In this document: positions 37,211 through 38,776 of the stretch, one piece after another
Layout of the letters: every line of letters starts with the position of its first letter
How positions within the stretch are numbered: position 1 is the stretch's first letter
Assembly: GCA_963724635.1 (NCBI GenBank)
Contig: CAVRVI010000013.1
Coordinates: 155,937-219,936, forward strand
Reading direction: 5' to 3'
DNA: 64,000 nucleotides
Source of the DNA: an uncultured Chloroflexia bacterium
GTDB taxonomy: Bacteria; Chloroflexota; Limnocylindria; Limnocylindrales; CSP1-4
Position numbers and translations under genes: made by a program
The notes under the pieces: model-generated
Database searches by the model: none
What the model was told of the DNA's origin: nothing
The model's input: the letters and a program-made list of their open reading frames with translations, nothing else

Positions 37211-38776
37211 GTGACGGACAGCGACGCGGCGATCGAGACCGGCGCGCGCCGCCGCCGAAGCGGCGGTCGGGAAGGGCACGAGCGCAACCTCCTTCCGCCC
37301 CAGCGACCATGGGCCCAGCCGCGCCTCCGCTACCGACCCACCGAGGTGGTCTCGGCCGACGAGCTCGAATCGATCCATGTCGCGTCGCTGCGCGTGCTCG
37401 AGGAGCTCGGGATGGACTTCCTGGACCCCGAGTCGCGGGAACTGCTGCGGGCCGCGGGCGCGAGGGTGGAACCCGGCTCCGAGCGTGTCCGGTTCGACCG
37501 CGCGATGGTGGAGGAGCTCATCCGGACCGCGCCGTCGTCATTCACGCTCCATGCCCCGAACCCGGCCCACGATCTGGTCATCGGCGGCGACTGGATGGCG
37601 TTCGGATCGGTGGCGAGCGCGCCCAACGTCTACGACGCGGACCGCGGTCGGCGGGTCGGCAATCGGGCGGATTACCAGGACCTCATCCGGCTCACGCAGA
37701 TGCTCGAAGTCGTCCACTTCTTCGCGGGCTACCCGGTGGAGCCGGTCGACATCCATGCGTCCGTCCGGCACCTCCATGCCATCCACGACCTCGTGACGCT
37801 GGCGGACAAGCCGATCCATGCCTACTCGCTCGGTCGGCAGCGCAACATCGATGCGCTGGAGATGATTCGGATCCGGCGCGGCGTGGACGACGCGACCATC
37901 GACCGTGAGCCGTCCATCTTCACGGTCATCAACTCGTCGTCGCCGCTCCGCCTCGACACGCCGATGCTCCAGGGGATCCTCGAGTTCAGCCGGCGCAACC
38001 AGGTCATCGTCATGACGCCGTTCACCCTCGCGGGCGCGATGGCCCCCGTAACGCTGGCCGGCGCGCTGGCGGAGCAGAACGCGGAGGCGCTCGCCGGGAT
38101 GGTCCTCACCCAGGTGGTCCGTCCGGGCGCGCCGGTCGTGTACGGCGGGTTCACGAGCAACGTGGACATGCAATCGGGGGCGCCCGCGTTCGGGACGCCG
38201 GAGTACATGCGGACCGCGATGGTCGGCGGGCAGCTGGCGCGGCGCTATGGCGTCCCGTATCGGTCGTCCAACGTGTCGGCGGCGAACGCCGTGGACGCCC
38301 AGGCCGCCTACGAGAGCGTGTTCAGTCTGTGGGGCGCGATCATGGGTGGCGTAAATCTGCTCATGCACGGGGCCGGCTGGATGGAGGGCGGTCTTCACGC
38401 CGGGTTCGAGAAGGTGATCCTGGACGCCGACCTGCTGGGCATGGTCGCCTCGTTCCTGGACCCGGTCGTCGTCGACGATGACACGCTCGCGTTCAGCGCG
38501 ATGGAGGAGGTGGGACCGGGCGGGCACTTCTTCGGGGCCGCGCATACCCAGGCGCGCTACAAGACTGCGTTCCACAAGCCGATGCTCAGCGATTGGCGCA
38601 ACTGGGAGACCTGGGAGGAGGCGGGCTCGCCACAGGCGGCGGGCAAGGCCAACCGGCTCTGGAAGGAGCTGCTCGCGGCCTACCAGGCGCCCCCGATCGA
38701 TCCGGCCGTGGCCGACGAGCTCCAGGCGTTCGTGGACCGGCGCGTCGCCGAGGGCGGCGTCCCGACCGATTTCTGA
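37211..38776 (+). CDS. trimethylamine methyltransferase (MttB) superfamily protein, non-pyrrolysine type (candidate quaternary-amine methyltransferase)
   Basis: ORF track, 521 aa, uninterrupted with no in-frame TAG. ...IHVASLRVLEELGMDF...FTVINSSSPLRLDTPMLQGILEFSRRNQVIVMTPFTLAGAMAPVTLAGAL...PEYMRTAMVGGQLARRYGVPYRSS...GPGGHFFGAAHT. Confidence 0.8.
   Translation: MTDSDAAIETGARRRRSGGREGHERNLLPPQRPWAQPRLRYRPTEVVSADELESIHVASLRVLEELGMDFLDPESRELLRAAGARVEPGSERVRFDRAMVEELIRTAPSSFTLHAPNPAHDLVIGGDWMAFGSVASAPNVYDADRGRRVGNRADYQDLIRLTQMLEVVHFFAGYPVEPVDIHASVRHLHAIHDLVTLADKPIHAYSLGRQRNIDALEMIRIRRGVDDATIDREPSIFTVINSSSPLRLDTPMLQGILEFSRRNQVIVMTPFTLAGAMAPVTLAGALAEQNAEALAGMVLTQVVRPGAPVVYGGFTSNVDMQSGAPAFGTPEYMRTAMVGGQLARRYGVPYRSSNVSAANAVDAQAAYESVFSLWGAIMGGVNLLMHGAGWMEGGLHAGFEKVILDADLLGMVASFLDPVVVDDDTLAFSAMEEVGPGGHFFGAAHTQARYKTAFHKPMLSDWRNWETWEEAGSPQAAGKANRLWKELLAAYQAPPIDPAVADELQAFVDRRVAEGGVPTDF

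Follow-up and report, generated by a model that had tools for sequence, protein, structure and literature searches.

The 64,000-nucleotide stretch of DNA analysed here (the window; C13:155937-219936 of the metagenome-assembled genome (MAG) G000, 2.92 Mb in 21 contigs, estimated 60.7% complete, 70% GC) carries an open reading frame (ORF) of the MttB methyltransferase superfamily. As the initial annotation stated, its immediate neighbours are an ABC1/UbiB-like kinase gene upstream and an SRPBCC gene downstream. We found that this MttB belongs to a conserved choline and glycine betaine (GB) breakdown cluster of soil Chloroflexota (Limnocylindria). In this choline/betaine-to-glycine island it is probably the methyltransferase I (MT-I) that acts on GB, with its corrinoid partners encoded elsewhere.

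The ORF had been described as intact and as a member that does not depend on pyrrolysine (non-Pyl), and both statements hold. It starts with GTG, the first start codon past an in-frame TAG at 37199-37201, and continues for 521 codons without an internal stop. Its GC content at third codon positions (0.91) is typical for coding sequence in a 70% GC genome, and the frame is uninterrupted in 79 of 80 orthologous MttB loci. The PF06253 (MTTB) profile was matched over its full length (positions 5-500 of 500, 654 bits against a cut-off of 25 bits); the Pyl-type model TIGR02369 scored 313 bits, under its cut-off of 525 bits. Three PDB matches, each nearly full length, were found: 4yyc (E 5e-108, 39% identity), D. 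hafniense MtgB (9yce/2qne, E 3e-98, 36% identity) and Pyl-MttB (7xcl, E 1e-53). By its sequence the ORF is a member of a distinct MttB clade. Homologs in soil and sediment metagenomes, annotated as trimethylamine methyltransferase, number more than 8000 proteins at E < 1e-50, and mttB/mtgB genes in Limnocylindria were already recorded by a MAG survey (PMC11264602).

The surroundings of the gene were compared by tblastn with those of 80 related loci. The nearest loci in public genomes come from Chloroflexota MAGs labelled Limnocylindria/Limnocylindrales (protein identity 73-95%), followed by MttB orthologs of Actinomycetota (Acidimicrobiia, 73-81%). A gene for a dimethylglycine dehydrogenase (DMGDH)-type enzyme lies directly 3' of MttB in 68 of the 80 loci, which makes it the most conserved partner. 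Among the 12 loci lacking it, 11 contigs stop within ~1.1 kb of MttB, and only L086 is truly without the gene. The sarcosine oxidase (Sox)-alpha-like gene is present in 54 loci. An Fe-containing alcohol dehydrogenase (Fe-ADH) gene was found in 43, and so was an aldehyde dehydrogenase (ALDH) gene that is directly upstream of MttB or of the UbiB-like gene. The enolase-superfamily gene of the window occurs in only seven. This conserved betaine context, to which an OpuAC-type transporter also belongs (Table 1), was absent from the initial account of the locus.

The 822-aa DMGDH-type enzyme is closest in the PDB to mammalian DMGDH (human/rat, 5l46, E 2e-164), and it also matches the Arthrobacter dimethylglycine (DMG) oxidase (E 1e-91). 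For the ALDH the best NCBIfam models were PuuC and betaine-aldehyde dehydrogenase, both under cut-off (514 bits for TIGR01804, the betaine-aldehyde dehydrogenase model). In Bacillus subtilis, choline is converted to GB by GbsB, a type III Fe-alcohol dehydrogenase, together with the aldehyde dehydrogenase GbsA. On this precedent the island would read as a route from choline through betaine aldehyde, GB, DMG and sarcosine to glycine, and MttB is the sole candidate within the island for the step from GB to DMG.

Table 1 Genes of the betaine island in the window and of the corrinoid module on contig C9 of the same assembly. Window coordinates count from the first nucleotide of the window.
Feature	Position	Strand	Domains and matches
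IclR-family regulator	27487..28353	-	PF09339 + PF01614; upstream in 27/80 loci
OpuAC-type glycine-betaine ABC substrate-binding protein	28320..29327	-	PF04069 E 1.3e-38
ABC transporter permease	29424..30380	-	PF00528 E 1.5e-20
Enolase-superfamily (MR/MLE) enzyme	32267..33376	+	MR_MLE_N + MR_MLE_C; best PDB match 4ggb E 1.7e-29
Aldehyde dehydrogenase, betaine-aldehyde/PuuC-like	33470..34888	+	PF00171 E 1e-170
ABC1/UbiB-family atypical kinase-like protein, C-terminal hydrophobic segments	35488..37191	+	PF03109 E 2e-58
Non-Pyl MttB-superfamily methyltransferase (MtgB-like), 521 aa	37211..38776	+	PF06253 E 9.4e-197
SRPBCC (Polyketide_cyc2) protein, hydrophobic C-terminus	38813..39274	+	PF10604 E 1.5e-9
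Phd/YefM antitoxin	39295..39537	+	PF02604 E 6e-14
PIN-domain (VapC-type) toxin	39538..39942	+	PF01850 E 8e-11
Dimethylglycine dehydrogenase-type flavoenzyme, 822 aa	39976..42444	+	DAO, FAO_M, GCV_T, GCV_T_C
Sarcosine-oxidase alpha-like subunit	42441..44746	+	2Fe-2S, SO_alpha_A3, GCV_T; TIGR01372; frame change near 44369-44384
Sarcosine-oxidase beta-like DAO flavoprotein	44975..46344	+	Frame-broken; L025 ortholog PF01266 E 1e-61
Fe-containing alcohol dehydrogenase (candidate choline dehydrogenase)	46479..47773	+	Frame-broken; L025 ortholog PF00465 + PF25137
Corrinoid protein, motif GDLHDIG	C9 ~18.98-19.32 kb		B12-binding_2 + B12-binding; PF02310 76 bits
Pterin-binding methyltransferase, 353 aa	C9:19517-20575	-	PF00809
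RACo activator	C9		Fer2 + Raco_middle, RACo_C_ter in second frame; frame-broken

In order to demethylate GB by the mechanism of its family, MttB would need a corrinoid protein. The initial annotation saw no B12-binding ORF in the window and called MttB an orphan. A six-frame search with PF02310 confirmed this for the window and for the whole of its 290-kb contig C13. The same search over the assembly gave five B12-binding matches, on contigs C1, C4 and C9. On C9, at ~17.6-22.3 kb (L089:5673-11534), genes for a URO-D methyltransferase, a corrinoid protein, a Pterin_bind methyltransferase and the activator RACo are adjacent, and an intact copy of this module is present in the relative G028 (L105, G028:C6). 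The C9 corrinoid protein is 57% identical over 113 aa to an MtgC-like protein of G028. The orphan label is thus correct for the neighbourhood of MttB and does not extend to the genome. According to the initial annotation, a corrinoid protein and a methyltransferase II (MT-II) found adjacent in the complete genome would make the system a conventional one, and this is largely what we observed: the two are next to each other on C9, away from MttB.

A LacI-type regulator lies beside the C9 corrinoid module, and its other neighbours are an enolase-superfamily gene and a Gfo/Idh/MocA oxidoreductase-like gene, the latter judged by its N-terminal sequence alone. This context points to a methylated sugar or a methylated sugar acid as the substrate that the module demethylates, in preference to an amine. 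The only other Pterin_bind match in the genome, C13:69454-70107, was considered as a hidden MT-II and rejected, as it carries dihydropteroate-synthase motifs. A stand-alone B12-binding protein is encoded at C1:42595-42882 (~257-aa open frame); it has the motif EHHMIG (ExHxxG-type) in place of DxHxxG and may be either a sensor of the CarH type or a further corrinoid protein.

The corrinoid genes were followed in 36 genomes of the same genus, in which an MttB ortholog was defined by at least 75% identity. Such an ortholog is present in 26 of the 36, each time together with two to seven further MttB paralogs. Two relatives display a canonical cluster in the order IclR, MtgC-like, DUF1638, Virulence_fact, Pterin_bind, RACo, MttB paralog, MTHFR and MetH-like. 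The pterin methyltransferase by which this cluster is recognised shares 36-41% identity with that of C9 and was found in 29 of the 36 genomes, at 2-4 kb from an MttB paralog (41-46% identical to the window MttB) and close to a MetH-sized frame. Judged by its pterin-binding homologue, the canonical cluster is present in 23 of the 26 ortholog-bearing genomes, the three exceptions being 68-80% complete, and it is usually on the same contig as the MttB ortholog at a distance of 60-100 kb. The modules come closer together in Actinomycetota. In L079, L064 and L088, genes for MttB, DMGDH, Sox-alpha, Sox-beta and a homocysteine-methyltransferase-like protein are followed by RACo, Virulence_fact and DUF1638, and in L075, L057 and L032 corrinoid-module genes are no more than 10 kb from the MttB operon. 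An MtgC-like protein with 75-93% identity is encoded in all eight such Actinomycetota genomes tested, and its distance from the MttB ortholog is ~10-14 kb in several of them. The orphan status of MttB is a property of gene order and not of the genome, and it is normal for this ortholog group in Limnocylindria.

These distributions also bear on whether MttB uses a corrinoid at all. An enzyme that passes the methyl group straight to tetrahydrofolate or to another acceptor would agree with the lack of an adjacent corrinoid gene in most Limnocylindria loci and with the failure to find the canonical module in the G000 assembly. All characterised family members, however, methylate a corrinoid (PMC13080624, PMC12478193), the genus genomes that carry the ortholog nearly all hold a corrinoid module as well, and in Actinomycetota the module abuts the MttB operon. 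We consider a corrinoid-independent enzyme extremely unlikely.

Two MttB paralogs of G000 itself are encoded on contig C17 (L090). The one at C17:79899-81362 (+) is 53% identical to the window MttB and has Gln in place of His348. A DoxX gene comes next, then a small ORF (ArsR-like by sequence alone) and an AHSA1/SRPBCC gene. The other, at C17:86515-88047 (-), is 28% identical and lacks Arg312 as well as His348; a creatinase/M24-like gene is nearby.

Taken together, the genes would fit the following pathway. The OpuAC-type ABC system would import betaine or choline, and the Fe-ADH and ALDH would oxidize choline to GB. MttB would transfer one methyl group from GB to the Co(I) of a corrinoid protein and release DMG, from which the DMGDH-type and Sox-like enzymes would strip the two remaining methyl groups, passing them to tetrahydrofolate. 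A pterin-binding methyltransferase would discharge the methyl-corrinoid onto tetrahydrofolate, and a RACo/RamA-type activator would hold the cobalt reduced. The corrinoid partners would be common to the three to eight MttB paralogs of each genome, as in MtgBCD of Ruegeria pomeroyi; a partner that is shared by the paralogs and encoded elsewhere is probable.

Four residues of D. hafniense MtgB bind GB: Y97, R312, H348 and F356 (PMC13080624). We compared the window MttB at these positions with 4yyc, 9yce and the MttB paralogs, and assessed conservation over 81 orthologs. The corresponding residues are A135, R351, H386 and G394. R351, H386, W390 and G394 are invariant in the 81 orthologs, and at position 135 only the small residues A, G and S occur. 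The carboxylate-binding pair Arg312/His348 is thus retained, which makes a carboxylate betaine the probable substrate. The cation-pi pair Tyr97/Phe356 is replaced by A135 and G394. In 4yyc the Phe356 position is likewise Gly, but Tyr97 is kept.

The pocket leaves room for a second reading, in which MttB works by the same corrinoid MT-I mechanism on another betaine (proline betaine, carnitine, gamma-butyrobetaine and others) and GB is left to a 4yyc-like paralog. Apart from the small residues at the Tyr97 and Phe356 positions of the window clade, this reading can draw on MtcB, MtpB, MtyB and MthB, in which the aromatic pair is likewise not conserved and R312 and H348 largely are (PMC13080624), on the Tyr97-keeping paralog of the relatives and on the enolase-superfamily gene upstream in the window. 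The gene context argues for GB instead. The DMGDH-type enzyme directly downstream and the Sox-like enzyme supply two further N-demethylations, a number that suits GB, while a single one would suffice for proline betaine; the ALDH and Fe-ADH suit the conversion of choline to GB; and the enolase gene is present in only seven of the 80 loci. We considered this gene as a hydroxyproline-betaine epimerase (HpbD) and rejected the assignment, since no betaine epimerase was named among the 60 PDB matches listed and the gene is present in so few loci. In addition, R. pomeroyi too has two GB-induced pfam06253 proteins (PMC12478193). With one demethylation step for each of the three methyl groups, the enzymes for making GB from choline and a betaine transporter, GB is favoured as the substrate of the window MttB with moderate confidence, and we regard another betaine as possible but rather unlikely.

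Several observations weigh against assigning GB and an external corrinoid partner to the window MttB. The first is the missing cation-pi pair, together with the low identity to both D. hafniense MtgB and 4yyc. The MttB paralog in the canonical cluster of relatives is 44% identical to the window MttB; its 66% identity to 4yyc, its Tyr97 and its seat in a corrinoid cluster make it the more orthodox GB candidate. As for the partner, the C9 module has its own candidate MT-I, the URO-D protein, is frame-broken in the G000 assembly, and its type of pterin methyltransferase occurs in only 6-7 of the 36 genus genomes. Neither DUF1638 (PF07796) nor a MetH-like gene was found in the 61% complete G000 assembly, and a tblastn search of it with the canonical mtgC-type cluster matched only the paralogous C9 genes. 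The genes that flank the cluster in relatives were not found there either, so the canonical cluster of this species most likely belongs to the 40% of the genome that is missing from the assembly.

The two genes that enclose MttB in the window have a very different distribution from the catabolic genes. The UbiB-like protein is under the UbiB equivalog cut-offs (TIGR01982, 260 against 488 bits; NF003404, 199 against 667 bits). Its gene is present in 12 of the 80 loci and in eight of 22 genus genomes sampled, in each of these eight directly upstream of the MttB ortholog and co-directional with it. On the MttB ortholog tree it has been gained or lost at least four times (eight by parsimony), in some cases inside near-identical clades, and it is therefore dispensable. 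Between the window and its closest relative, L009, the UbiB-like gene is 75% identical, as against 90% for the flanking ALDH, 96% for MttB and 89% for DMGDH, which suggests relaxed constraint or allelic replacement.

A search of the 80 related loci for the SRPBCC gene gave no match, not even at E 1e-3, and consequently no locus combines it with the UbiB-like gene; the two occur together only in the window. The sole Pfam match of the SRPBCC protein is PF10604, with no COQ10-type START domain, and one homolog is labelled 'YndB with AHSA1/START domain' by its source. The subfamily has four relatives in a collection of 5.8 billion proteins. One of them, with 56% identity, was located in a contig from a metagenome between an MttB (84%) and a DMGDH (91%), which indicates that the SRPBCC protein evolves fast in comparison with its flanking proteins; the adjoining antitoxin/PIN pair is unrelated to that of the window and differs in order. 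Another, at 83% identity, retains the SRPBCC-Phd order of the window. Besides the window, two recovered contigs (L114 and L115) carry the gene at the junction of MttB and DMGDH. On a third SRPBCC contig the same Phd gene adjoins SRPBCC and the flanks are unreadable. Every recovered SRPBCC context adjoins a PIN/Phd cassette.

In L009, whose MttB is 95-97% identical, DMGDH begins 1.5 kb past the MttB start; the window thus holds a 1.2-kb insert made up of SRPBCC and the Phd-PIN cassette. The cassette brings its own promoter-operator palindrome, and the same cassette with the palindromic operator is located at the MttB-DMGDH junction in four other loci. The Phd-PIN pair is a selfish cassette. We also considered SRPBCC and the toxin-antitoxin pair as one mobile unit, and rejected this because the pairs beside two SRPBCC homologs are unrelated in sequence. 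The junction is a hot spot for inserts (window 38777-39975; L114:527-1865; L028:11566-12330).

The initial annotation had remarked that a UbiB-like kinase and an SRPBCC protein recall the COQ8/COQ10 pair of quinone biology, with the caution that this might be coincidental. Under that idea the kinase, MttB and SRPBCC would form a quinone-linked unit, for example one through which the electrons of DMGDH and Sox would reach the quinones of the membrane. The position of the UbiB-like gene, where it is present, is constant (8/8 genus genomes, 12/12 loci), the rare SRPBCC gene recurs at the same junction in L114 and L115, and both proteins have hydrophobic C-terminal segments. These features are set against the sporadic occurrence of the kinase gene (12/80 loci, with four to eight gains or losses), the absence of SRPBCC from all 80 loci, the sub-threshold UbiB score, the lack of a COQ10-type family match and the fast divergence of SRPBCC. 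A quinone-linked unit is very improbable. The UbiB-MttB-SRPBCC neighbourhood is not conserved, which largely removes the proposed linkage, and the caution was justified: the UbiB-like and SRPBCC genes are dispensable, sporadic accessory inserts, known only at the MttB locus, and their likeness to COQ8/COQ10 is coincidental. More speculatively, the kinase and the membrane-anchored SRPBCC protein (both known in the genus only at this locus) might be optional components of the betaine operon, with a role in regulation or in menaquinone or lipid handling that couples DMGDH/Sox flux to the membrane; separately, aerobic demethylation of betaine in soil might proceed mainly through the DMGDH-coupled, Tyr97-less clade, which is abundant in soil Chloroflexota and Actinomycetota and would bind its substrate in a mode unlike that of the characterised MtgB. 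We think this proposal quite unlikely.

Downstream of DMGDH the island is frame-broken in the assembly. By tblastn against the intact orthologs of L025, the Sox-alpha-like gene is split over two frames, the Sox-beta-like gene over three and the Fe-ADH gene into five pieces. At least seven frame changes fall within window positions 44369-47773, compared with none in 33470-44369. The density of G/C homopolymers is comparable in the broken and unbroken stretches (1.55 and 1.38 runs of at least five per kb), and an alignment of the broken stretch with L009 has 29 gap openings over 3.5 kb. Similar breaks are seen in the corrinoid module on C9. Sequencing errors and gene decay are both compatible with these breaks. 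The sequencing runs found in a run search hold at most 21% of the sampled words and represent relatives, not the source sample, and an exact-sequence look-up of the 521-aa MttB in a contig collection returned no record. Orthologs of MttB on contigs labelled Verrucomicrobiia (L021 and L026), Methylomirabilota (L038) and Patescibacteria (L085) are 74-84% identical to the query, nest inside Limnocylindria clades and retain the synteny wherever flanks exist. Mis-binning of these contigs, and not transfer between phyla, is the probable explanation.

If the proposed role of MttB is correct, aerobic cobalamin-dependent demethylation of GB would extend from marine Proteobacteria to abundant soil Limnocylindria and Actinomycetota. 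The analysis also picks out a distinct and very common MttB clade that is routinely mis-annotated as 'trimethylamine methyltransferase'. This helps to interpret counts of mttB in soil metagenomes as a sign of betaine catabolism and of a demand for B12, and not of methylotrophy on trimethylamine.

Among known systems, the closest counterpart of this arrangement is the aerobic MtgBCD system, described from Ruegeria pomeroyi and further marine bacteria. In aerobic bacteria MtgB genes can be unlinked from mtgC and mtgD, and genes for the demethylation of DMG and sarcosine are often their neighbours (Mausz et al. 2025, PMC12478193); the hosts carry several MttB paralogs and use RamA/RACo and DUF1638 for reactivation (PMC12478193). 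As in that system, the MT-I of the window is a pfam06253 protein located apart from the corrinoid protein and the pterin-binding MT-II, and it sits beside DMGDH-type and Sox-like genes (68 and 54 of the 80 loci, respectively). G000 holds a corrinoid protein, a Pterin_bind methyltransferase and RACo on C9, with the canonical MtgC ortholog itself not found in the assembly, and relatives carry an mtgC-DUF1638-mtgD-RACo-mttB-MTHFR cluster beside MetH-like genes. The host, however, is a soil Chloroflexota bacterium, with close orthologs in Actinomycetota, and not a marine proteobacterium. Furthermore, the window paralog represents a separate clade, 39% identical to the 4yyc type and without Tyr97.

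The best solved-structure match, 4yyc, is a 'putative trimethylamine methyltransferase', probably of Sinorhizobium meliloti; a literature search for this PDB entry returned nothing. It shares an Arg-rich N-terminus and the AGWxEGGL motif with the window MttB, whose identity to it (39%) is well below that of the canonical-cluster paralog of relatives (66%). With D. hafniense MtgB (DSY3156; 2qne, 9yce) the window MttB has in common the family, the TIM-barrel fold (E 3e-98, residues 46-516) and Arg312/His348. It differs by an identity of only 36%, by Ala and Gly in place of Tyr97 and Phe356, by an N-terminal Arg-rich extension, by its aerobic context and by not lying beside MtgC or MtgA.

MtpB, MtcB, MtyB and MthB of Eubacterium limosum offer a parallel by their published description, as many MT-I proteins act there on one corrinoid hub and MT-II, and Arg and His are kept while the aromatics vary (PMC13080624); their host, in contrast, is an anaerobic acetogen. 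Pyl-MttB of Methanosarcina (7xcl, E 1e-53) has the superfamily in common with the window MttB, which differs by having no in-frame UAG and by falling below the TIGR02369 cut-off. Since MtgB unlinked from its corrinoid protein is already known from R. pomeroyi, no new kind of system is described here. The window MttB is best grouped with the MT-I proteins of cobalamin-dependent betaine demethylation systems of the aerobic MtgBCD type, and its membership in the D. hafniense-type MtgB group is only partial.

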